A stretch of DNA of 20,000 nt from an uncultured virus (IMG/VR IMGVR_UViG_3300037792_000004) (lineage: Duplodnaviria; Heunggongvirae; Uroviricota; Caudoviricetes). Of this stretch, positions 1,650-19,769 are shown piece by piece (position 1 is the first letter of the stretch; each line of letters opens with the position of its first letter). The stretch lies in IMG/VR virus record IMGVR_UViG_3300037792_000004. One strand, 5' to 3'. The position numbers and the translations under genes were made by a program. Under the pieces are notes generated by a model. It saw only the letters and a list, made by a program, of their open reading frames with translations. It did not search any database and was not told the DNA's origin.

Positions 1650-2552
1650 TTATCCGTTCCGGCCTCCGCGCAGGTTCATGCGGGCGAACTCTCCGGCGAG
1701 CTGCGATCGGGACGCCCGGAAGCTCTGGATGTCCGGCGTTGCGATGTTCATGATGAACGTGTCGCCGGTCTGCTGGACCGGACCGGGTTGGCTTCTTGCC
1801 GTTTCGGTTTGCGTCAATCTCGGTGCTGAAAAAGCGGATGTCGTGACCAGGCCGCCGTCCTGATAGCCACGAAGAGCGCCCTGACGCAGAGCTTCCAGGG
1901 TATTGACGCCGATCTTCCGGGTGGACTGAGCGTCAAAGACATATTCGTTCCGGTGCACCAACCCGGCGACCTCCGTGTCGCTCCCCCTGCCCGTTGAACC
2001 GCCACTATCGAAGGATCCGAACAATCCACCCAGAAAGCCGCCGGCCGCGCCAAGCGTCGGACGCGCTGTCCCAAAGAGCGCATTGGTGAGCGGATTGATT
2101 GCGGCAAGCTGCAGTCCGAGCTGCGAGACCTCCGTAATCACCGACCGTAACGCGCCGGTCAGATCCCCATCCGCCAACCGGGTCACAAGCGAGCGGATCG
2201 CCGTTTCCCCGGTCCGCTGCACCGCGCTCCAGGCACTCTGAAGCTCCTCAAGCGCCAGCGTTTCCTCCGCGATCGCCCGGGCATTGTCGCGCAGGCTTGC
2301 GGCCGTCCCCCGGCTGTGGCCGTCTATATCCGCCAGCGTGATCGTCAGCTCCGGAATGGTCCGGGCGAGCTCTCCGGCGGCCGCGCCGGTGTCTTTGAAG
2401 CCGCCCGCCACGCCGCCGAGCTGTTCTTGTTGCGCGGTCAGAACGTCCGTTCCGGTCTCGCCAAGACCGGCAATCGCTTTTTGAGCATCCTTGGCCCCAT
2501 CCACCACGCCCGTGGCATCCAGCGTTGCCAGCATGGTCAGCTTCAAGGTCAT
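1650..2552 (-). CDS. Short (300 aa) tail tape measure protein
   Basis: Start moved from 2624 to ATG 2552 (AAAAGGA RBS upstream; the extension runs through palindromic repeats). Ala/Gly-rich helical sequence; TMP C-terminal motifs FDSGGSTG..AGLVHRNEYVF and GYQDGGLV; directly upstream of the distal tail gene. Confidence 0.85.
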   Translation of the reverse strand: MTLKLTMLATLDATGVVDGAKDAQKAIAGLGETGTDVLTAQQEQLGGVAGGFKDTGAAAGELARTIPELTITLADIDGHSRGTAASLRDNARAIAEETLALEELQSAWSAVQRTGETAIRSLVTRLADGDLTGALRSVITEVSQLGLQLAAINPLTNALFGTARPTLGAAGGFLGGLFGSFDSGGSTGRGSDTEVAGLVHRNEYVFDAQSTRKIGVNTLEALRQGALRGYQDGGLVTTSAFSAPRLTQTETARSQPGPVQQTGDTFIMNIATPDIQSFRASRSQLAGEFARMNLRGGRNG

Positions 2553-2576
2553 CCACCGTCCTTTTTCTTCCGCGCC

Positions 2577-2621
2577 GCCCCGGACCCGATCCGGGGCCTG
2601 CCCCGAACCACGATCCGGGGG
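2577..2621. repeat. Two tandem REP/RPE-like palindromes in the TMP leader
   Basis: gccccgga-cccga-tccggggc (2577-2597) plus degenerate gccccgaa-ccacga-tccggggg (2600-2621); same family as copies at 8804, 8885, 11905, 14805. Confidence 0.7.
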
Positions 2622-2677
2622 CACTCAGGGGCTCTTCGAAACACTCGGCCCTCGGGCGCTCGTCTCCGGCGTTGCGC

Positions 2678-2723: not shown

Positions 2724-2922
2724 GGGATTGGGAAGGGTTGGTTTAGCGCGGGGCGGGCGGTGATGCCGGTCCCTTGGGGTGGGGGAACTGGGAGGGGGAT
2801 TCGGCAGGGGTGGTAGGTGACGCGAATCGTGCGTATATGCAACCGGAGCTACAGCGTACGTTTAACTCATTTTGCGTGTGCCTACTGCAACAGAACGGAT
2901 AGAGAGAGGTTTCAGCCGCTTC

Positions 2923-4284
2923 ATGGAATGGTTCAGCCAGTCCTTCAACAACCGGGAAATTGCTTCAGCGATCTGGTTGGCTATCGGGGCGGTGTTTTTT
3001 GTCCCGTACTTATTGCCGACAGCCGATTTGAAGAGATTGGTCTTCGAGTTATTGAAGGCTCTTTTCCAGCCAAGACTGGTAGTCTTGTTTGGTGCCTACG
3101 CTCTTTGGGTCACGCTAGGGGCCTATCTACTGTCCCTTGTAGGTTTATGGACCGCATTTGAGCTTAAAAACACCATCATGTGGTTCTTGTTTTCCGGTGC
3201 GGGCTTGCTTGCCAGAGCTATACAGCACGACGGTGATGCCTCGTTCTTTGGTGAAATTATTCGCGATCAATTTCGGATTTTGGCCGTCTTTGAGTTTGTT
3301 GTGGTTGCCTACTCGTTTGCGCTTTGGCTGGAGCTATTGCTCGTTCCCTTCGTGACATTGCTGACCGGTTTACAGTTTGTCGCCGAACGGGAGGAAAAGT
3401 TTGCTCCGGTGAAGAGGCTCATTGACGGGATATTGCTCGGCATAGCTGTGATGGCTATTTGGCATTTCGTTGCATCTGTAATGGAAAATACAGGCACTTT
3501 CTTTTCTTTGCAGACCATGCGCGATGTGTTGCTGCCGATCCTGCTAAGCGCGTTCTCGATACCAATATATTATTTGACGTATTGTTATTCGCGTTGGGAA
3601 AATGCAGTAATCCGGATTGGATTGAAGACCTATCAATCTGACGTATTGAAAGAACAAGCCAAAGCTACTTTCTGTCGGAATCTCTTTCTTCAACCAGTGT
3701 TATTGGACCGGGCGGTTCGCCAGTTTCAAACCCTGCCTGCCAAAAACAAACCAGATCTCGATGAGATCGTTGCCGAGATTAGGCAGTACGAGCGCCTGAA
3801 GGCATCACCACCCACAGTACCGGCAGAAAAAGGATGGTGTCCCTACAAAGCTGAACAATTCCTGACGGAACAGGAATTGGAAACGTCGGACTACCATAGC
3901 ACAGGTTTTGACGAAAAATGGTTTGCAGAATCCAGTTCCAAATACATTTCTGACACCTTCCCGCGAGAAAAGCTGACGTATAGCCTCCACGGAAAAAAAG
4001 GCGCTGCCAACGCGCTAAAACTTAGGGGCAGCTTCCAGATTACACCGCATCCAACGACAGGGTTGTCCGCGCTTCAAGATGCAGCGGCAACATTGGCTAA
4101 AAATGCCATTGGCGTTGAAGACCTGCCAGGCCTAATAGTCTCCGCGATTCGTGAAGCATCGGATGCCGAAACGTTTGTTGATCGCCATGTCCTGTCTGTG
4201 GCTGCATCGCGTTTTGGCGAAGCGAATATCCTTGATATGGAATTTTCTATCCGCCCGCAAAAGCGTGGCAGAAATGGAAACTGA
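2923..4284 (+). CDS. Multi-pass membrane protein of unknown function with soluble C-terminal domain
   Basis: Long ORF opposite to the phage genes; roughly 6-7 hydrophobic segments in the first ~220 aa. Start at ATG 2923 after AGAGAGG (track start 2872). Confidence 0.8.
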   Translation: MEWFSQSFNNREIASAIWLAIGAVFFVPYLLPTADLKRLVFELLKALFQPRLVVLFGAYALWVTLGAYLLSLVGLWTAFELKNTIMWFLFSGAGLLARAIQHDGDASFFGEIIRDQFRILAVFEFVVVAYSFALWLELLLVPFVTLLTGLQFVAEREEKFAPVKRLIDGILLGIAVMAIWHFVASVMENTGTFFSLQTMRDVLLPILLSAFSIPIYYLTYCYSRWENAVIRIGLKTYQSDVLKEQAKATFCRNLFLQPVLLDRAVRQFQTLPAKNKPDLDEIVAEIRQYERLKASPPTVPAEKGWCPYKAEQFLTEQELETSDYHSTGFDEKWFAESSSKYISDTFPREKLTYSLHGKKGAANALKLRGSFQITPHPTTGLSALQDAAATLAKNAIGVEDLPGLIVSAIREASDAETFVDRHVLSVAASRFGEANILDMEFSIRPQKRGRNGN

Positions 4285-4376
4285 AATATCAATCTTGAAT
4301 TCAAATCATTTCCCGATCAGCCCGGCAGCTCGGCCGAGTTTGCAGCCTTCATTTGTAACTTAAACGGGGCAAAGAC

Positions 4377-5351
4377 ATGAACCTAACGCTCGATCAATGT
4401 GATGCGCTCGATCGTGAAATTGACAGTTTGAATGGAAAAACAGAACTTCGCATACGCGATGTGGAAGAAACATTTGGCAAAGTCTTGAACGTGCTCCTTG
4501 TACAGGAGGGGTTTGGCCGCATAAATACGCCTCGTAGTTCCGATGGAGGTGTCGACTTCATTTGGGAAAGAAACGCTTCAGGCGATCCACTGGATTCGGA
4601 GAAATGTGGCGTCACTATCAAGTATTATCGAAACAAAGTTGGCATATCAGAGCTCCAGAAACTGCTTGCAGTTTCGGTTCTAGGCAGTTTCAACCGAGCC
4701 CTTTTAGTCAGCAACTCCGAATTCACGCAAAAAGCACACGATCTGGTCAACCGAGAGCTTCCGGTCAAGGTTGAGTTGGTAGGGCTTTCCGATTTAAAAA
4801 ATTGGGTCGCGCGGTTTCGGAATAATGAGCCCGATATTGAAACGGAAGTCCGAATAATAATGCGAGATCTAAGCGAAATTCTCGCGCGCATGATTGCTCG
4901 GGATAAAAGTACGCTTGTTCATTTGGAATGGCGCGATGTCGAGCGGGTTGTAGCAGAAGTTTTTGATGGCTTGGGATTTCGAGTTGCCTTGACCCCAGGG
5001 TCGAAGGACGGTGGCAAGGATGTGGTAGTCACTTGTTTTGCCGAGGGGCGCGAAGCCGAGTATTATATCGAAATCAAGCATTGGCGATCATCGACAAAGG
5101 TTGGTTCTGGTGCGGTTGAAAAGCTCCTAAAAGTGATTGTCGAAGAGAAGAAGGATGGGGGGATGTTTCTGTCCACATACGGCTTCACTTGCAATGCATT
5201 CGAGCAGTTGACCACGATTGACAGGCAAAAATTATGTTTCGGCGATCAGGAGCGGATCGCGACTTTCTGCAAGACATATGTGAAAGCAAAGGCAGGCCTC
5301 TGGTCTCCACCTGAAAACTTGGGAGAGGTATTATTTGACAAGAAAAACTGA
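4377..5351 (+). CDS. Mrr-like restriction endonuclease with two tandem PD-(D/E)xK domains
   Basis: Domain 1: EETFGKVL..EGF..TPRSSDGGVDF..TIK..KVG..LVSNSEFT. Domain 2: VERVVAEVF..LGF..TPGSKDGGKDV..EIK..KVG..LSTYGFT. Confidence 0.85.
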   Translation: MNLTLDQCDALDREIDSLNGKTELRIRDVEETFGKVLNVLLVQEGFGRINTPRSSDGGVDFIWERNASGDPLDSEKCGVTIKYYRNKVGISELQKLLAVSVLGSFNRALLVSNSEFTQKAHDLVNRELPVKVELVGLSDLKNWVARFRNNEPDIETEVRIIMRDLSEILARMIARDKSTLVHLEWRDVERVVAEVFDGLGFRVALTPGSKDGGKDVVVTCFAEGREAEYYIEIKHWRSSTKVGSGAVEKLLKVIVEEKKDGGMFLSTYGFTCNAFEQLTTIDRQKLCFGDQERIATFCKTYVKAKAGLWSPPENLGEVLFDKKN

Positions 5352-5412
5352 AGCGGAGGCTTCCGTAAAACAGTGACGAGTTCTAATTCTACTGATGCAT
5401 CAGCGCTTAGAA

Positions 5413-7791
5413 TTATTCGTCATTTGCGCCGTACTGGTGTTTCCGGAGCTCAAGAGACTCTTGCGCGCGTTCGCGTTCGTGGACCTCGGCAACTTTGAGG
5501 CTTTCAATGTGCCGTTCAGCGAATTCTCGCACATTTAAATCTTCATTATACAACCAGTCTTGCAGTTCAACTGCCTTTCGAGCATAGGCGTCCGCAATTC
5601 CAAATTCCCCGGAGACGACACCTGTCGACGTTAATACAGAGAATACGTCAGACATCAGTTTTTCGTCTGAAGAATGTGTTGCAACTACTTCTCGGCAAAC
5701 ATTGTGCAAGAACGGCTGACCGTGGTAATTTTTTAGAATGTCGAGAGAAAATTTTGCATGTGATTTCTCGCCAGTTCTCACCAGAGCAATGAGTTCACGT
5801 TCCAATTCCTCACCAAAATTTGGGTAGACATTGGCGATTAGGCGTCCACCGCGAAACTGAAACAAAACATCTTTTTCATCATACCATGAGCGCACAGTGC
5901 TCACGATAAGCTTTGCGTTTTTCGAAAGTGGTTCTATCAATTCATGGAAATCGAACGGAATTGCTTCACAATCATCCAAACATTCTTCCGAGATAATACG
6001 CTGCCTGAAAAAGTCGAGGACCAAATCCGGTCGCAATTCCGCGACTGGTTTGAGAAGTTCCTCGGCCGTATTGTCAATCCGCTGGACACATAACAAAGCC
6101 TCTATCAGCACCATCAGTTTGTCTTCAGGCAGCTCCTCAGTTATTTTTTGGAGACGACGAACGTCCCAGATGAATTTCACCCAGTCTTTGCTTTGCAAGT
6201 CGGTCAATCGCCTTAACACAGGCACAAACAGACGATCTACGGCGACACCGGGATCGCTTTCATATATGTGGCTGCCGACTTCCAGCAGCAGTGACAAGAT
6301 ATATTCGTTTTTATTTGCGAACGCTTGCTCAAGAACAATTTCCAACAGCTCAATATCGAGCTGCTGATCGCCAAGAAAGAGCTTGGCAATTGCTTCAAGT
6401 TCCAAACCCTCATCAGCGCGTTGCTTCAGCAGCGTCTGACAATCATTCCTATATGTCGTTTGAAGGAGGCCTCGGTAGATTGGGATAGTGAATTTTTCGA
6501 CCTGCTCAAGATGATTGCCAACGAGTTCAAAAGCGAGGTTAGGCTTTAATTCCGCCAGTTCTCGCAAGAATCCAAAGAAAATCGGAAACGTAGCCAAGTC
6601 GGTGGACTCGGTCTTGCAAAATTCAAGGATCCTCTCTTTCCAGGTGGCCCAATTCTCTTCGCTCACTTCGTGTGCGAATTCGGATGAATTTTGCTGGCGC
6701 TCACCCTCGACCTTAGCGAAGTCTGTTTCTGTAGAAAGGGACTCTTCCCAATCCTCGAACACGCTCTCAAACCCGATGAGAACCCGATAAATCTGATATT
6801 CTGGATTTTCGTAAAGGGTATCGCGTATTTCTAGGCAAGACTGCCTGATCGCGTCAGATATACCGTGATAATAGCGCCAATAGACGTCGTGTTCAGTTTT
6901 TTGAAGCACGGGAAAGCGCTCCTCGGGGATCTTGCCTTTAATCCAATCAAGAACATCCAAACCGTTCTCGACGATTACTTCTTTAAGATCATCTCCACAC
7001 TCACCTCTAGAGGGAACATCCATTGAAGCCATCATTAAGCGAATAAGTGATATTTTCTCCGAAATGGATCGGTCTGCATGATAGATGCTTTTTAAGAAGT
7101 TTACCGTCCGGTTCCGGACGTCAATCGTTTGATCGCAAACTGGAAGCGCTCTGCTGGACCATGTGACGCTCTTGTAATCCCAGGATGTTCCTTCCAACGA
7201 TGGAGAAAGGAGTTCCTCACAAAGACATTGAACAGCTTCAATGTGCCCGTGCATGAACTCGGTCTGGTTCTTTTCCAAATAAGCCAATATTTCAAGCTGT
7301 GGCGAGGCCCCTAAACCAGGCCGACCTTCGCCTCCATAGAATACTTGGATATCGTAAGACGCACACTTTCTCAGGGCCTCGAGAGCGGCTCTGACCACTG
7401 TTTCATCGGTATCCTCGCAATACCGAATGAATATGTCTACAACTGCCGGCGTATCGAAGTAGCGAAAGAGCTGAACAAGTTCCAACGTCTCCTTGGTGAG
7501 ATAAGTTTGTGCTTCTACAGGCGATGTTGGGTCATATTCTGTAACGCTGTTTATGAATACAGGCCCCCGCAGCTTCTCAAGAAACTTTGATAAGGTGGGG
7601 ATCAGGTGATCAGCAACCCTATGCCCGTAAACAGTCAGTTCCTCCAAGACAGATTCCAATTGATGATAATCTGTGCTTTCAGTCAGAATTACTGCGGCTT
7701 TCTGAAACTCGTTTTTGAGCGCCAAGGAGGCCTTATCGCTTTGTGACCGGCTGAGTTGCTTCAGTATTTTGAGCTTGTCATCCCGCGCCAT
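5413..7791 (-). CDS. 792-aa alpha-helical (HEAT/ARM-like) protein, putative anti-phage sensor
   Basis: Leu/Glu-rich amphipathic helices throughout, no Walker A motif, GGAGG RBS inside the upstream gene. Resemblance to Avs4/STAND C-terminal regions is recalled, not searched. Confidence 0.6.
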   Translation of the reverse strand: MARDDKLKILKQLSRSQSDKASLALKNEFQKAAVILTESTDYHQLESVLEELTVYGHRVADHLIPTLSKFLEKLRGPVFINSVTEYDPTSPVEAQTYLTKETLELVQLFRYFDTPAVVDIFIRYCEDTDETVVRAALEALRKCASYDIQVFYGGEGRPGLGASPQLEILAYLEKNQTEFMHGHIEAVQCLCEELLSPSLEGTSWDYKSVTWSSRALPVCDQTIDVRNRTVNFLKSIYHADRSISEKISLIRLMMASMDVPSRGECGDDLKEVIVENGLDVLDWIKGKIPEERFPVLQKTEHDVYWRYYHGISDAIRQSCLEIRDTLYENPEYQIYRVLIGFESVFEDWEESLSTETDFAKVEGERQQNSSEFAHEVSEENWATWKERILEFCKTESTDLATFPIFFGFLRELAELKPNLAFELVGNHLEQVEKFTIPIYRGLLQTTYRNDCQTLLKQRADEGLELEAIAKLFLGDQQLDIELLEIVLEQAFANKNEYILSLLLEVGSHIYESDPGVAVDRLFVPVLRRLTDLQSKDWVKFIWDVRRLQKITEELPEDKLMVLIEALLCVQRIDNTAEELLKPVAELRPDLVLDFFRQRIISEECLDDCEAIPFDFHELIEPLSKNAKLIVSTVRSWYDEKDVLFQFRGGRLIANVYPNFGEELERELIALVRTGEKSHAKFSLDILKNYHGQPFLHNVCREVVATHSSDEKLMSDVFSVLTSTGVVSGEFGIADAYARKAVELQDWLYNEDLNVREFAERHIESLKVAEVHERERAQESLELRKHQYGANDE

Positions 7792-7793
7792 AG

Positions 7794-8636
7794 CTAGAGG
7801 GCCTCCAGTTTTGCAAGGAATTGGTCAGCGTATGCCTCGGCGGCTTCGCTGCAGATTGCTATATTCAGCGGAAGAATGTGTGATGCGGTTACTTTTATGA
7901 GACCCATCTGAGCAAGACGTTCAACGTTTGCAGCAATGGCAGATACGTCCAAACCACACTCAGCGATCAAGTCATTAAGCTGTTCTTTTGACATAGGATC
8001 GAGCCACATGCTGTATCCTAGGATGCGGCGCCTTATCTCACGGTCGCCGGCTTCAATGTCGTCCAATACCTGTTCAAGCGACGGTTGGTTTGTTAGGGTT
8101 TCTACCGGCGCTTCCAATGGTGGTTTCCGGCTTTTGTGGTCGGCAACAATTCGCTCAAATTGGTCAATAACAGCATCGTCGAATTCATGATCTTGCGAGC
8201 TCAGTTTGCATATTTTTCTTAGACGATGAGGAGAAAGCTCCATCGCCATATTCAGCAAATCATTTCTGCACCAAGCACGTATTTCAATGCCAGGGTGTTT
8301 TTCGCGTAGATCTCCCAGAAGTACGTTGCAAGTAGTCCATAGTTCGCGCTGATTGAAGACAAATACCCATTTTAACATGCGGTTGCCAAAATGTTTTACG
8401 GCACCATGAAAGTCTTCATTAATTTTCTTCGCTGTATCTGCAGGATTAGGTTTCTCCGGTCCGTAACACTGGAATACAGTTTGTTCCGTTACATGATAAC
8501 CGTCACATTTATGGTCACCATGCCGCCCTTGAGGTTTCCAGCTTTCGAAATCCTCTCCCCATCTCTCCTTAGCAAGTTCGATAAAGAAATCCTCAAAACC
8601 CTGCATCGTTTTTTCGCGCAGGAGATCCGCAATCAA
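7794..8636 (-). CDS. PD-(D/E)xK REase-fold nuclease with putative C-terminal winged helix
   Basis: QGFEDFF..F...KPQGRHGDHKCDG..VFQCYGP..KINEDF..KWVFVFN, the pattern of REase effectors in ABC-3C/Lamassu-like and STAND systems. C-terminal LIAECGLD..VERLAQMGLIKV looks wHTH-like. Start uncertain (TTG 8636 or ATG 8606). Confidence 0.7.
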   Translation of the reverse strand: MIADLLREKTMQGFEDFFIELAKERWGEDFESWKPQGRHGDHKCDGYHVTEQTVFQCYGPEKPNPADTAKKINEDFHGAVKHFGNRMLKWVFVFNQRELWTTCNVLLGDLREKHPGIEIRAWCRNDLLNMAMELSPHRLRKICKLSSQDHEFDDAVIDQFERIVADHKSRKPPLEAPVETLTNQPSLEQVLDDIEAGDREIRRRILGYSMWLDPMSKEQLNDLIAECGLDVSAIAANVERLAQMGLIKVTASHILPLNIAICSEAAEAYADQFLAKLEAL

Positions 8637-8800
8637 GAGAGCTTCTAAGGGATAAGCCAGGGCGAAACACCGAGTCGTTCACAATTGTCTGCAACTTAGC
8701 TCAAAAATCTTCAAAAAATCAAAAAAGTACAGTGCCGCTAATTCTCGGAACTTCACGACATCTGATCAAAGGGCCTGTCACCGGCCGCCGAGTATCGGCA

Positions 8801-8830
8801 TGGATCACCGGATCAAGTCCGGTGATGACG
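8801..8830. repeat. REP/RPE-like palindrome
   Basis: atcaccgga-tcaag-tccggtgat followed by gac. Confidence 0.8.
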
Positions 8831-8881
8831 GCAGTGGGTATGGGGGCGTCGGTTTTTAATCTCCAAGGCTCTGGAAATGAT

Positions 8882-8908
8882 TGGATCCCCGATCAAGTCG
8901 GGGATGAC
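8882..8908. repeat. REP/RPE-like palindrome
   Basis: atccccga-tcaag-tcggggat followed by gac; same loop and tail as the 8801 copy. Confidence 0.8.
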
Positions 8909-8909
8909 A

Positions 8910-9077
8910 TCAGAGGGGGGACCCAAGGACGTGCCTTGACCGGCAGCTGCAGTAACACCCGCAAAACCGCATCAAACAGTGAGAACCGATCCCGGCAATG
9001 GCTCGGCCAGCCTCCCGGGCGCCGCTTTCGACGCCCGAGGCATCCAACCGGGCCAGCATTTGCAGGTTCAAGGTCAT
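8910..9077 (-). pseudogene. Truncated duplicate of the tape measure gene 5' end
   Basis: Own translation MTLNLQMLARLDASGVESGAREAGRAIAGIG is 20/31 identical, ungapped, to the TMP N-terminus MTLKLTMLATLDATGVVDGAKDAQKAIAGLG. Similarity ends near 8985; stop at 8910-8912. Confidence 0.85.
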
Positions 9078-9083
9078 GCCCGC

Positions 9084-9129
9084 ATCGTCGCGCGCGGGCG
9101 AGGGTCAAGCTATCCGGGTGGATGCGTGG
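9084..9129 (-). promoter_or_regulatory. Putative late promoter (copy C) ahead of the TMP fragment
   Basis: CCACGCATCCACCCGGATAG (9129-9110; 13/20 to copy B), 20 nt, GACGAT (9089-9084), ATG 6 nt further. Confidence 0.5.
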
Positions 9130-9159
9130 GATGCGAGAAGCAGGCAACCTGGACCAAAC

Positions 9160-9299
9160 CAAGTCTGTATCCAATTCGCCTAGTTGCCGATTGAGTAGTC
9201 GTTTGCGTAGCGAACCGATCCAATTTCGGCGCACCAAACGAGTTGGACAGATTTCATAATCGCCAGAACCAGTGGGTCAACTTAAATCAAGTCTGTATC
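9160..9299. repeat. 12-bp direct repeat CAAGTCTGTATC with an imperfect inverted partner between the copies
   Basis: Exact copies at 9160-9171 and 9288-9299; 9239-9254 is an imperfect reverse complement of 9161-9178. Confidence 0.55.
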
Positions 9300-9351
9300 T
9301 GCCGTGAGTTTATTCAAATTAGGATCAGGTTCTTTGGGGATCGCGGTTTAT

Positions 9352-9372
9352 AAAAATCGAACCAGATTCGAT
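9352..9372 (-). terminator. Possible intrinsic terminator of the SLATT gene
   Basis: Minus strand ATCGAA-TCTGG-TTCGAT then TTTT, immediately after the stop; weak stem. Confidence 0.45.
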
Positions 9373-9373
9373 A

Positions 9374-10021
9374 TTAACGGGCCCAAAAATACAGTGTAGT
9401 TATCACGGTGGGCGGCACCATGATCGAGATCAACATTATTGACCAACAATCAAACCAATATTTTATTGGCTGATAAAATGAATATATGTAATCACCAGCA
9501 TGTTTGCCGATGTTTATTCTGAAAGTACGATAATCAGTCTCTGAATGGTTATCTGCGAAATCATGGACCAACTCATTGTAACTTTTGACTGCATCTGCGA
9601 CGTCTTCTTTGGAAAGGCGACTGATACGTCGGGCAAACTCAAGTTCATCTCGTAATCTTTGTATTCCCTGTGCGCATCGTAAGAACAGTTCTGCCTTAAG
9701 ATCATGCTTCTTACCCTGCTCAAGAACTGAAAAAGCAATAATGAATGCAGACATTACCATGTTGGCGATTATGAGGTGTTGTTCGAGGTTTCCGAACGCG
9801 CTCAAATCGTAGATAGCCAGAATTGTGCTAGTAGTGAAAACGTACATTGAGAGCGCAATAATGGACCAAATAGATGCAGTAGCGCGCCTTTGATGCCTTC
9901 TTGCGGCCTGGTATCTGGCACCCTTTGTAAGGTGCATTCTATACAGCAGAGTGTCGACGTATTCATCAAGCTCAGCCTCGCTCGGCTCTGGGGTGCTTTT
10001 CACAACCTCAGCTACAGTCAT
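9374..10021 (-). CDS. SLATT-domain (SLATT_5-like) transmembrane effector
   Basis: TKGARYQAARR before two TM helices, KAELFLRCAQGIQRL, YNELV...NHSETDY, and a third C-terminal TM. Confidence 0.82.
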   Translation of the reverse strand: MTVAEVVKSTPEPSEAELDEYVDTLLYRMHLTKGARYQAARRHQRRATASIWSIIALSMYVFTTSTILAIYDLSAFGNLEQHLIIANMVMSAFIIAFSVLEQGKKHDLKAELFLRCAQGIQRLRDELEFARRISRLSKEDVADAVKSYNELVHDFADNHSETDYRTFRINIGKHAGDYIYSFYQPIKYWFDCWSIMLISIMVPPTVITTLYFWAR

Positions 10022-16451: not shown

Positions 16452-17939
16452 CTACCAGCATGTTGGATCCCTGTCTTCCTGAGGTTGAGATGCAATACTG
16501 TTTAAATCCACCAAAGTGTTCAAAAAATACTCTGAAAAGTGTTGGCTCTGTGGGGCTGAATTCCCAATTGATTTTGAAGGACATGATAGTTTTTGACACT
16601 CATCTCCAATGCATAAGTCACTTAATTGAACGGCACTTGATTGAATGGAAATTGGATGTACTGAAAGTCCCTGCCGCTCGTAGTGGTCATGTAGACTGTC
16701 TTCTTCCCTGTTCAGTCTTCTAACAATCTGTTCGATCGGCTCGCCCCATTCTGCAGATATAAAATAAGTTCCGAGATCTACATGTTGATCTTTTTCACCA
16801 TTACAGGTTTGTGGGACGTTGACGCCTTCCGGTACCAAAGGTGGACCATTTAGCGAGAATTTGCGTCGTATGTATTTTTTAGGCGTTCCATTCGGAGTGC
16901 AGCCAACAGCAACAATGTCCAGATGCACTCCTTTTTCACTATAACAAGCTTCCGATAGGAAGTCTGGATCGGTGTATTTTACGCTTCGAAAATCCGCTCC
17001 CGTTACGTTGGCGCCGCGAAAAACTGTGTTGGATATCTTAAGATCGTAATCAGCTGGGTTCTCCAAACACCCTGCCCCATCACCACTTCCGCAGGATCCT
17101 CTTGCAAAAATAGATCCAGCCAAGTTGGATTCCTGGAAATTAGCGCCAGTCATATCGATCGCAACAAATTCACTTATCGGGAAAACCGTTTTTTCGAAGT
17201 CGCTTTCTTTCATCGTTGAATAGGAAACTCTGGCTCCTGGGATGTCCGCAAGCTTCCATTTAAACTGAACTTGATCAAAATTCGTATCGTAGAAATCAAA
17301 AACTCTTAAAGGCTGGCCAAGCCTACCGGTTTCGATTTGACTATCCGTATGAGTCTGCAGATCCTCTTGGATTTTTGCGCGCGAGAAATTTATTCCAGAG
17401 TTGTTAGTAGTTGAGAAGTATACTTTCTCGAGTATAGCTCCCGAGAAGTCAGCATCATTTAGATGAGAGTGCCGAAAATCTACTTTATGGAATCGAGCTT
17501 CTGAGAAATTTGTTTTACAAAATTTACCTTGGCGCAGATCAATATCGCGAAATGGTATACCACTCAGATCTACATTGGATAACGAAACACCCATTTTGTT
17601 GAGGCGTTCCAAGGCCTCAGATTGACCAATTTCGCCTGAAGCACCAATACGCCCTGCACGATCTATTATTGAAAAATACTCGTTTATTGCTGGGATGCGT
17701 CGATCCTCAGCAGAGGAGCGAAGTTCAGAAATTTTCAACCCAAAGTCCGAAAAAACCAAATAAACGCCAACAAGTGCAAGTGCAAAGCCGGCTACTTCTA
17801 TTCTTTGGAAAAGCCAGTTAGGTGCTTCATATCGGAACAAAAATTTGAATGGGAAAAAAAATTTGCTTATGAACAGGTCACGCCGGTTCTTAGTCCGCAA
17901 AAATCGATACCAAATTCTTAATCTTCGTGTAGCAGTCAT
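16452..17939 (-). CDS. Membrane-anchored pentapeptide-repeat protein
   Basis: Basic N-terminus, TM VAGFALALVGVYLVF, repeats LSNVD LSGIP FRDID LRQGK FCKTN FSEAR FHKVD FRHSH LNDAD FSGAI; 10 Cys. Confidence 0.85.
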   Translation of the reverse strand: MTATRRLRIWYRFLRTKNRRDLFISKFFFPFKFLFRYEAPNWLFQRIEVAGFALALVGVYLVFSDFGLKISELRSSAEDRRIPAINEYFSIIDRAGRIGASGEIGQSEALERLNKMGVSLSNVDLSGIPFRDIDLRQGKFCKTNFSEARFHKVDFRHSHLNDADFSGAILEKVYFSTTNNSGINFSRAKIQEDLQTHTDSQIETGRLGQPLRVFDFYDTNFDQVQFKWKLADIPGARVSYSTMKESDFEKTVFPISEFVAIDMTGANFQESNLAGSIFARGSCGSGDGAGCLENPADYDLKISNTVFRGANVTGADFRSVKYTDPDFLSEACYSEKGVHLDIVAVGCTPNGTPKKYIRRKFSLNGPPLVPEGVNVPQTCNGEKDQHVDLGTYFISAEWGEPIEQIVRRLNREEDSLHDHYERQGLSVHPISIQSSAVQLSDLCIGDECQKLSCPSKSIGNSAPQSQHFSEYFLNTLVDLNSIASQPQEDRDPTCW

Positions 17940-18119: not shown

Positions 18120-19769
18120 CTATCTATGAGCAAATAGTAGCCCCATTGGTGATTTCTTCAGTTCCTGATGAGCGTTTCTGAGATCACGAAACCTTTCCGG
18201 GATTTCCTTCAGTTTTGGTGCGTCTATCACTTGATTGATTGCGAAAGCTGCAGCACCAAAAGCAGGTGTTCCTGTTGCGATTGCTGCGACTTCGACGGTG
18301 CCAGCAACTAACCATGATCCCAAATCGTGCCCAGCAAACTTCAAGCCTTTGGCCTTTAGTTCTTTGATGTTTTCCTGGTGCTTTTCGAAAGCATCTTGAA
18401 CATTGTTGACTATTTGATCGCTCGACCGAAAAAATCCATCTGGCTTGGCATTGGCTATCTCGTTGATACCGGCAGATAACGTTTCTCTAATCTCTTCAAA
18501 TGCTCCTTGTTGGCGCATCTCTATCAGCGCTTCGGAAGGAATGTTGCCCAGCCACTGCATGTCGGTATCAGCAACTCTTTGCAGCCCCTTAATCATATGT
18601 AAATGGGTTACTTCGTCATCGGCCATCGCGGAGTTGTATTCCAGCTTCCAATTGAAATATTTCCAGGAAGTCGGAGCGTCCAGCAATGGAGTTCCATAAA
18701 GGTATCGGCTCTTTAGCAGTATATCGGTGGCTTGCATCATCCGACCCATACATTGCATAGCAGCAAAATCTCCCGCCGCGATCTCGCCAGGAAACAATGA
18801 TCCATCGTTCTTGAGCGCCCGTTTTATTTGATCCTCAAGTGTGCCGTCCCAATCAAGGTCGAACAGCAGTTTCTCTCTATCGATTACCTCCTTGACGAGC
18901 TTTTCTGGAGTTTCCAGCGTAGAGCAAAATCCAAAGAGTTCTTCAATGCTTTCAAATTTCCTGCCAAACACTTGCCCCGCGTGAATGAGTCCATCTTTTT
19001 CGGCAATTTTCTCCAAAAAAACGCGCTCATCTTCATCAATCGATGACTTGAACGGCGTTACGATAATTACCGGATTATCAAGCTCAGCCAAGGCTAGATC
19101 TCGATATTTCATAAGATTTATTGCGTGCTTTACTAAGAAATAAACTTGCTTTTCATGGGAAGAGTTTTCAAATACTGCTTTTGATTGCCAAAAAGGGTCT
19201 GACAATATGATTGTATCGACATATAGGCCGACACTACTGGCTATGTTCTTTTGATATGAAGGGAAGAGATCGCCACCGTAGACGGCTTTTGTTCCGTTTA
19301 AGTCTTGAATGTGGTAATGAGAAGACTCAGAAAGCGCGCTCCAAAGCTCTTGAAGTCCCTCGAGAAAGTGTGGGATCTGTGGACTTATGTCCTTAACCGC
19401 CAAGGGTTGCTGAGATATCGCTAAAGCGAAGTCATGCGCATCATAACCTTTTTCACGAGCTTCCGTGACGAAGAAACCCAAATTTGACTCGATGTACTTG
19501 AAGTATGATGCAGCAATTTCTTCTAGCGAAATGGCGTCTTTAGCTTCTTGTCGATCTTGCATAACTGCTGCAATCATGGCTAACGAGCGGATTCGCGCAT
19601 CGACGGTCGCCAGATCTATTTTGCCATCTGTACCGTAACGTATCGCGTTTAAGCTTTTCTCGAGATCATCGGCAAGATGTGCTGCAACATGGATTTTACC
19701 TTCTTCGAAGCGTGCGCGAAGTACCTCTAGCCGCCAACGGAGTTCTTCATCCCGGTCTTCTTTGTTCAT
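18120..19769 (-). CDS. 549-aa hypothetical protein, candidate anti-phage cargo
   Basis: Long intact AT-richer ORF; no family recognised with confidence; Ala/Gly-rich hydrophobic stretch near the C-terminus. Confidence 0.75.
   Translation of the reverse strand: MNKEDRDEELRWRLEVLRARFEEGKIHVAAHLADDLEKSLNAIRYGTDGKIDLATVDARIRSLAMIAAVMQDRQEAKDAISLEEIAASYFKYIESNLGFFVTEAREKGYDAHDFALAISQQPLAVKDISPQIPHFLEGLQELWSALSESSHYHIQDLNGTKAVYGGDLFPSYQKNIASSVGLYVDTIILSDPFWQSKAVFENSSHEKQVYFLVKHAINLMKYRDLALAELDNPVIIVTPFKSSIDEDERVFLEKIAEKDGLIHAGQVFGRKFESIEELFGFCSTLETPEKLVKEVIDREKLLFDLDWDGTLEDQIKRALKNDGSLFPGEIAAGDFAAMQCMGRMMQATDILLKSRYLYGTPLLDAPTSWKYFNWKLEYNSAMADDEVTHLHMIKGLQRVADTDMQWLGNIPSEALIEMRQQGAFEEIRETLSAGINEIANAKPDGFFRSSDQIVNNVQDAFEKHQENIKELKAKGLKFAGHDLGSWLVAGTVEVAAIATGTPAFGAAAFAINQVIDAPKLKEIPERFRDLRNAHQELKKSPMGLLFAHR

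Follow-up and report, generated by a model that had tools for sequence, protein, structure and literature searches.

Introduction

According to Lee et al. 2026 (PMC13581612), the nucleoside triphosphatase (NTPase) of Avs and NLR proteins both keeps the receptor inactive and drives its assembly; on binding its target, SeAvs7 clamps its sensor lobes relative to the winged-helix domain (WHD) and frees a sequestered nuclease. That paper (PMC13581612) also examines split proteins and describes Dsr1, which uses the Avs7 sensor without an NTPase and senses a capsid protein; because the Avs7 sensor is common to Dsr1, reuse of an Avs sensor without an NTPase is already in print. A second relevant design is Olokun, in which a helical protein and a PD-(D/E)XK nuclease are reported to assemble as a 2:2 complex and, in vitro, to cleave some phage DNAs while sparing host DNA (10.1101/2025.07.10.664194). 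Here we analyse a pair of genes in a 20,000-nt stretch (the window) of the uncultured Caudoviricetes virus IMGVR_UViG_3300037792_000004. Gene 1 encodes a restriction endonuclease (REase)-like effector with a winged helix-turn-helix (wHTH) at its end, and gene 2 a large helical solenoid. Our analysis describes a real, conserved and apparently undescribed two-gene system with a STAND-derived sensor and no NTPase. An anti-phage role for the pair is very probable, and the more specific reading, a STAND-derived, NTPase-less, two-subunit anti-phage sensor-effector, we consider probable.

A recurrent effector-solenoid pair

The features of the pair, in window positions, are as follows.

7794..8636, minus strand: gene 1, the effector subunit, 280 aa from a TTG start; ABC-3C-type PD-(D/E)XK nuclease, linker and wHTH
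8217..8636, minus strand: REase domain, gene 1 residues ~1-140; structural matches, relatives in ABC-3C operons
7797..8084, minus strand: wHTH domain, gene 1 residues ~185-280; aligns to the WHD of STAND relatives
7802..7806, minus strand: GGAGG Shine-Dalgarno of gene 2, located in the 3' end of gene 1, with 10 nt to the ATG
5413..7791, minus strand: gene 2, 792 aa from ATG; HEAT-like alpha-solenoid

A preliminary description of this locus, made from the sequence alone, had reported two intact genes 2 nt apart, the second with its own GGAGG, together with REase motifs and a wHTH-like end in gene 1, helical repeats in gene 2, and neither a Walker A motif nor a nearby ATPase. All of these observations hold. 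Both minus-strand open reading frames (ORFs) and the GGAGG (7806-7802) are confirmed, two nucleotides separate the gene 1 stop codon TAG (7796-7794) from the gene 2 ATG, and gene 1 contains FEDFF, GDHKCDG and FQCYGP. There is no Walker A in gene 1 or gene 2, and no ATPase among the five genes of the low-GC cargo that contains the pair. Homologous pairs without an NTPase recur as well, which that description had named as a check. Clustered at 50% identity, the gene 2 family numbers 1,108 clusters with E up to 0.001, of which 486 reach E 1e-30 or better. Among the 80 genome loci analysed, out of 161 confirmed genome matches, 43 have a free solenoid and 29 a fusion, the remaining 8 being partial or broken and not counted. 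Each of the 43 free solenoids has an abutting, same-strand upstream effector gene of 231-460 aa. The N-terminus of this effector is PIN_12 at 34 loci (4 of them under the Pfam cut-off), a gene 1-type REase at five, and SIR2, HNH, DUF4365 or an HsdR-N-like domain at one locus each. A wHTH search seeded only by REase-family C-termini reached 41 of the 43 partners, missing those of L034 and L080, and none of the non-partners among 4,400 ORFs. The paired loci are spread over Pseudomonadota, Cyanobacteriota, Nitrospirota, Bdellovibrionota and a Bacteroidota-labelled metagenome-assembled genome, at 27-54% identity and with the same break point and spacing. That effector gene and solenoid gene are a real linked unit is practically certain.

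All 29 fusions at the analysed loci carry RelA_SpoT; in a wider set of 38 long homologs, 30 carry RelA_SpoT, six are DUF4365-wHTH-solenoid single chains, and two carry neither RelA_SpoT nor DUF4365. The Walker A pattern occurs in none of the 38 long and in 3 of 122 mid-length homologs, in the latter at scattered positions, and no fused homolog longer than 1,438 aa turned up, which is weak evidence on NTPase absence. Around the homologs, no neighbour family recurs in more than two loci among 222 ORFs, and an SMC or ABC ATPase was found in none of the 119 flanking proteins scanned out of 137, the 18 outside the scan all being under 175 aa. The neighbour listing shows some homologs adjoining restriction-modification, Hachiman, HEPN/RES, Fic, IrrE, integrase or transposase genes.

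The solenoid corresponds to a STAND sensor

AlphaFold2 (AF2) models gene 2 as an all-helical solenoid (predicted local distance difference test, pLDDT, 92.7; predicted template modelling score 0.81). Fold searches with this model return only generic eukaryotic HEAT/ARM proteins, with Foldseek template modelling (TM) scores of at most 0.40, and the best VIA match (Z 14.7, root-mean-square deviation (rmsd) 7.1, 270 aligned) is about chance for helical repeats. No Avs chain is in the top 50 of either search, both lists being filled with eukaryotic HEAT proteins; the comparison covers these top-50 lists only, and an Avs chain further down could exist. In the Atlas, gene 2 resembles (TM score 0.61) a cluster of which 16% of the members carry nSTAND3.

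A weak plasmid match led to the Aulosira protein BAZ78633.1, and a second STAND was obtained from 401 cyanobacterial genomes, 4 of which matched. Both proteins have Walker A (GPGGIGKT and GSGGLGKT), Walker B, a GxP motif and a WHD, and the solenoid hidden Markov model (HMM) covers their C-terminal ~780 residues at E 5.6e-54 and 1.8e-67, with HMM positions 7/8-780/783 aligned. Three further STAND relatives match at 1e-20 to 3e-8. The STAND relatives are ~1,200-1,350 aa long and lie near nSTAND3 and EAD10 clusters in the Atlas. Aligned by hhalign, solenoid and STAND sensor match over 725 columns (99.96%, E 9e-39), starting directly after the WHD. We are thus almost as sure of end-to-end homology between gene 2 and the STAND C-terminal sensor, judged by sequence profiles, as of the gene linkage itself.

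The same comparisons connect the other end of the junction. In a STAND of 1,354 residues, the best site for the partner wHTH profile is the WHD (44.5%, E 2.3e-4), against 0.1-0.2% for three unrelated control profiles, none of them a generic wHTH. The DUF4365 single chains align continuously across the WHD and the start of the sensor (96.7%, 227 columns). For the REase-only profile A2 the best site is still the WHD, at a level that is not significant (0.5%, E 0.13). With moderate confidence, the gene 1 wHTH can be read as the counterpart of the STAND WHD. Sensor and WHD homology together make the pair an effector-WHD and a sensor that lack the nucleotide-binding and helical domains, and the split STAND proposed in the preliminary description, with the large protein as the sensor half, gains its substance from these profiles.

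In phylogenetic trees all NTPase-less forms fall on one side of a branch (FastTree support 0.998 for 93 rows; SH-aLRT 90 for the same branch in a quick IQ-TREE tree of 35 of the 93 rows), and the split form has at least two separate origins. NTPase loss from a STAND ancestor would be the simplest reading of these trees, and is put no higher because the STAND branches are long and few. One separate case is L034 (5106-8331), a split DUF4365-wHTH and solenoid; because its solenoid is sister to the RelA/SpoT fusion P0145, the tree suggests a recent independent split or effector swap. At L046 (4764-8073, P0154-like), a 230-aa REase-like gene precedes an 871-aa protein with an extra N-terminus that looks wHTH-like by eye and is not detected by the wHTH HMM; this may be a third split point.

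Several observations weigh against a STAND-derived anti-phage sensor-effector. The STAND set holds only 6 proteins, one of which (L108) fails the solenoid HMM (E 0.13), and in Pfam the STAND relatives score below the NTPase cut-offs (AAA_16 E 2e-6). Taken alone, the match of wHTH to WHD is modest, and the wHTH structure matches archaeal ATPases (Z 9.2 and 9.1) in a tie with generic regulators (Z 8.7-8.5). The direction of NTPase change rests on a quickly computed, not truly rooted tree in which the STAND branches are long. The RelA/SpoT fusions are without a wHTH (0.4%), so that the wHTH is not required in every form. Finally, homologs lie on only 2 viral contigs, none is present in INPHARED phages, and many homolog loci have housekeeping neighbours.

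An ABC-3C-type nuclease joined to a winged helix

The AF2 model of gene 1 (pLDDT 79.9) consists of an alpha/beta domain, a loose linker and the wHTH. According to VIA the first domain has a restriction-endonuclease fold, with AF1548 as a match (Z 11.1, rmsd 3.1, 115 aligned) and further matches to FokI (Z 10.3), LlaBIII (10.2) and the Avs4 nuclease 8dgf (9.0). Across 22 aligned homologs E15, G40-D41-x-K43-C-D45-G, Q56, Y58 and K71 are invariant or nearly so, and catalytic roles are inferred for E15, D41, K43, D45, Q56, Y58 and K71. The C-terminal domain is recognised as a wHTH by Pfam HTH_24 (E 0.0086) and by wHTH structural matches at Z 8-9. The upstream frame of gene 1 reads LAYPLEALLIADLL and homologs start, for example, with MAHAIEAIVLENILL; because of this resemblance to homolog N-termini, the true start may lie 8 codons earlier, at CTG 8660, which would give a protein of 288 aa.

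A gene 1-type REase is encoded at 55 metagenome loci, 51 of them without a wHTH. Downstream of the REase at 30 of these 51, in most cases with a ~81-aa gene in between, lies the gene for a protein of ~575-700 aa that has an NGxGK[ST] P-loop and, almost without exception, an HDSH motif. We take this layout to be ABC-3C, a name backed by PF20275 on the homolog P0056, and the preliminary description had likewise assigned the nuclease to a type whose relatives usually come with an ABC ATPase. At the four loci with a wHTH, the solenoid is next in three and the contig ends at the fourth. This distribution argues that the gene 1 nuclease is a recruit from ABC-3C systems that pairs with the solenoid only if the wHTH is present. 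The abundance of ABC-3C operons among its relatives, and the existence of STAND relatives, could also be taken to mean that an Avs gene has decayed or been assembled wrongly here, or that an orphan Lamassu/ABC-3C nuclease lies beside an unrelated helical gene by chance. But break point, spacing and wHTH are repeated in 43 loci across phyla at 27-54% identity, and gene 2 has its own ribosome-binding site and a family of more than a thousand clusters. Decay or chance is largely refuted by this conservation, and we regard it as extremely improbable. In a separate arrangement, at L180 and L181, an REase domain as in gene 1 is fused to a TPR-like protein of 979 aa in which the Walker A pattern is lacking.

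Predicted binding and a proposed mechanism

The predicted complex of the solenoid with gene 1 residues 176-280 scores 0.55, compared to 0.00 for the best of 3 controls; at least 96% of contacts are the same between runs, and the partner pLDDT is 81-83. Our score mark is reached by 116 of 157 solved pairs and by 2 of 215 mismatched pairs, but passes at 0.60 or under comprise only 18 of the 157 solved pairs along with both mismatches, and the halves of a split gene may pass by likeness. The modelling therefore gives weak support to wHTH-solenoid binding: the sensor-effector complex put forward in the preliminary description scores above its controls.

In the mechanism that we propose, the wHTH would dock the effector on the solenoid, remaking the WHD-sensor junction in trans, and the nuclease would be kept inactive in this resting complex in uninfected cells. 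The solenoid would clamp a conserved phage protein, as Avs sensors do, and a change in its shape would release or cluster the nuclease. The freed nuclease might then degrade DNA and cause abortive infection, the cell stopping or dying, and the prophage would keep the cassette against competing phages. Clamp and release are modelled on SeAvs7. On balance we lean towards activation through a phage protein bound to the solenoid.

PIN, HNH, REase and SIR2, toxin-like effectors encoded in tight two-gene operons, and a weakly predicted wHTH-solenoid contact, would also fit type II toxin-antitoxin logic without pattern recognition. Here the solenoid would be a large antitoxin that holds the effector via the wHTH, and the effector would be released once phage-induced shut-off, proteolysis or stress removes the solenoid. 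However, a conserved solenoid of ~800 aa that is a STAND-sensor homolog throughout far exceeds the needs of an antitoxin, and differential decay is impossible for the single-chain fusions. We consider an antitoxin unlikely and prefer a sensor that is triggered by a bound phage protein.

Comparison with described systems

Pfam, PADLOC and NCBIfam give nothing at cut-off for the two proteins, and PDB sequence searches no meaningful match, in agreement with the preliminary description, which could not assign the pair to a named system. The likeness to Avs/STAND proteins is extensive: the sensor is homologous end to end, the WHD is kept and the N-terminal effectors are swappable. In contrast to them, the pair has no nucleotide-binding domain and no helical domain HD1, is encoded by two genes split at the WHD-sensor junction, and cannot oligomerise by ADP/ATP exchange. 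Since the defining NTPase is absent, the pair is Avs-like in its working but not an Avs. PADLOC reports no Avs match for the window protein, ~80 free-solenoid homologs or the 6 STAND relatives, and a PDB sequence search with profiles A3 and A4 gives no Avs match; the resemblance to Avs4-like tails suggested by the preliminary description is not borne out. The nearest STAND family (that of Aulosira BAZ78633.1) is nSTAND3/nSTAND5-like and unnamed, and may be listed in the tables of Lee et al. 2026 (PMC13581612); six accessions looked up are not found in the source-data files of that paper covered here.

Dsr1 likewise joins an Avs sensor to an effector without an NTPase, but as one gene and with another sensor. 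The solenoid profile gives E values of at least 0.27 on 7 Dsr1 ORFs, and hhalign 0.2% with a shallow Dsr1 profile, so that identity with the Dsr1/Avs7 sensor was rejected at this sensitivity; the NCBIfam Dsr1 model matches only the SIR2 domain of one partner. Our literature search, which left the subscription literature largely uncovered, returned no description of the effector-wHTH/solenoid pair or of the fusions. The novelty claimed for the pair by the preliminary description thus stands in that no described system matches, but not as regards the absence of the NTPase, for which Dsr1 is a precedent in print (PMC13581612).

Olokun was examined because of weak PADLOC OloA matches in some solenoid homologs (best E 5e-9). 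It has two genes, for a helical protein and a PD-(D/E)XK nuclease, and no evident NTPase, which together with those matches could point to Olokun-like restriction, in which nuclease and scaffold would form a constitutive complex that itself tells phage DNA apart, the wHTH being bound to DNA. An OloA search of 401 genomes gave weak matches only, mostly short and HEAT-repeat-like by eye, and true OloA came from a second search. In contrast to the pair, OloA (~570-600 aa) is not detectably homologous to the solenoid, the two genes stand in the opposite order, no wHTH match is found in the first ~500 aa of OloB, and no effector swapping is seen in 9 loci. On the solenoid profile, 9 true OloA give E values of at least 0.47 (hhalign 5.5%), and Olokun identity was rejected. 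Moreover, the same chassis bears effectors that leave DNA uncut, namely PIN, SIR2 and RelA/SpoT; the effector range (RNase, DNase, NADase and RelA/SpoT-type) therefore favours signal-triggered toxicity over DNA recognition. Restriction of the Olokun kind is, in our estimate, quite improbable, and a STAND-derived sensor-effector remains the preferred reading.

With ABC-3C/Lamassu the pair shares the REase domain, and homolog P0056 has CTD10 (PF20275) and a weak LmuA match, but the wHTH replaces the C-terminal domain, and neither the ~81-aa middle gene nor the ~588-aa ATPase is present. The REase domain alone being common, an ABC-3C/Lamassu identity was rejected.

The RelA/SpoT-solenoid fusions of ~1,000 aa (L031, L036, L039 and 26 other loci; P0134 and others) have the sensor without a wHTH, and their Atlas cluster has 216 members, 96% of them with PF04607. 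They look like single-chain sensor-toxins, in the manner of the fused toxSAS CapRel, and are candidate single-gene toxSAS-like receptors. The sensor of CapRel is reportedly a small antitoxin domain, whereas that of the fusions is a STAND-type solenoid of ~800 aa. A fusion on a Rhizobium rhizogenes plasmid (L098, 4906-8838) reaches 1,310 aa through an added C-terminal poly-gamma-glutamate hydrolase domain.

Implications

If our reading is correct, a winged helix docks a PIN RNase, REase, HNH, SIR2 or DUF4365 effector onto a separately encoded HEAT solenoid. In its widest form, these would be widespread pattern-recognition receptors that descend from NLR-like STANDs through loss of the nucleotide switch, with the WHD now a plug for docking interchangeable effectors and a separate solenoid that senses a conserved phage protein; we give this form a little less than an even chance. 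The phage protein is possibly a trigger new to the field. Full STANDs, effector-WHD-sensor single chains, two-gene splits and RelA/SpoT-sensor fusions without a WHD would be a natural series, and its survival makes the contribution of the NTPase to NLR signalling testable on natural variants; effector exchange in trans likewise becomes testable. The 486 clusters with matches at E 1e-30 or better are candidate defence loci whose solenoid is unrecognised by the copies of Pfam, PADLOC and NCBIfam that we searched, and they include the RelA/SpoT-solenoid fusion class.

Phage context of the locus

The pair belongs to a block of five genes, the others encoding a SLATT_5 protein, a double Mrr_cat protein and a membrane protein. 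The block and other low-GC genes are listed below.

2872..10021, no strand: low-GC prophage cargo block around the pair
4377-5351, plus strand: Mrr_cat domain in two tandem copies; gene convergent with the pair; weak matches to PDC-S02 and type IV REase
9374-10021, minus strand: SLATT_5 effector with two transmembrane segments, upstream of gene 1; no cyclase or reverse transcriptase partner in the block
16452-17939, minus strand: low-GC pentapeptide-repeat protein with an N-terminal hydrophobic stretch; Qnr models match far below their cut-offs
18120-19769, minus strand: low-GC gene, 549 aa; its middle part is DitB-like (PADLOC E 3e-13), its N-terminus weakly Avs1c-like (E 2e-4); possibly a further defence gene

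Promoter and terminator scans (9 vs 8.2 and 7 vs 8.9) are at chance level. At the insertion site, one of 4 related viral contigs has no insert, one has another insert and two diverge in the tail region; neither gene 1 nor gene 2 is present in these four. At the chaperone/tape-measure junction the inserts differ between the window and L190, L193 being without one, and the junction is likely a cargo hotspot. The tape-measure ORF of the window (1650-2624) has 324 aa, about half of the 669 aa in the closest relative. Finally, between SLATT and gene 1 (window ~8790-8935) there are GC-richer, palindromic-looking stretches, such as GATCCCCGATCAAGTCGGGGATGAC near 8885-8909, and by eye similar text follows DUF2460 in L190.

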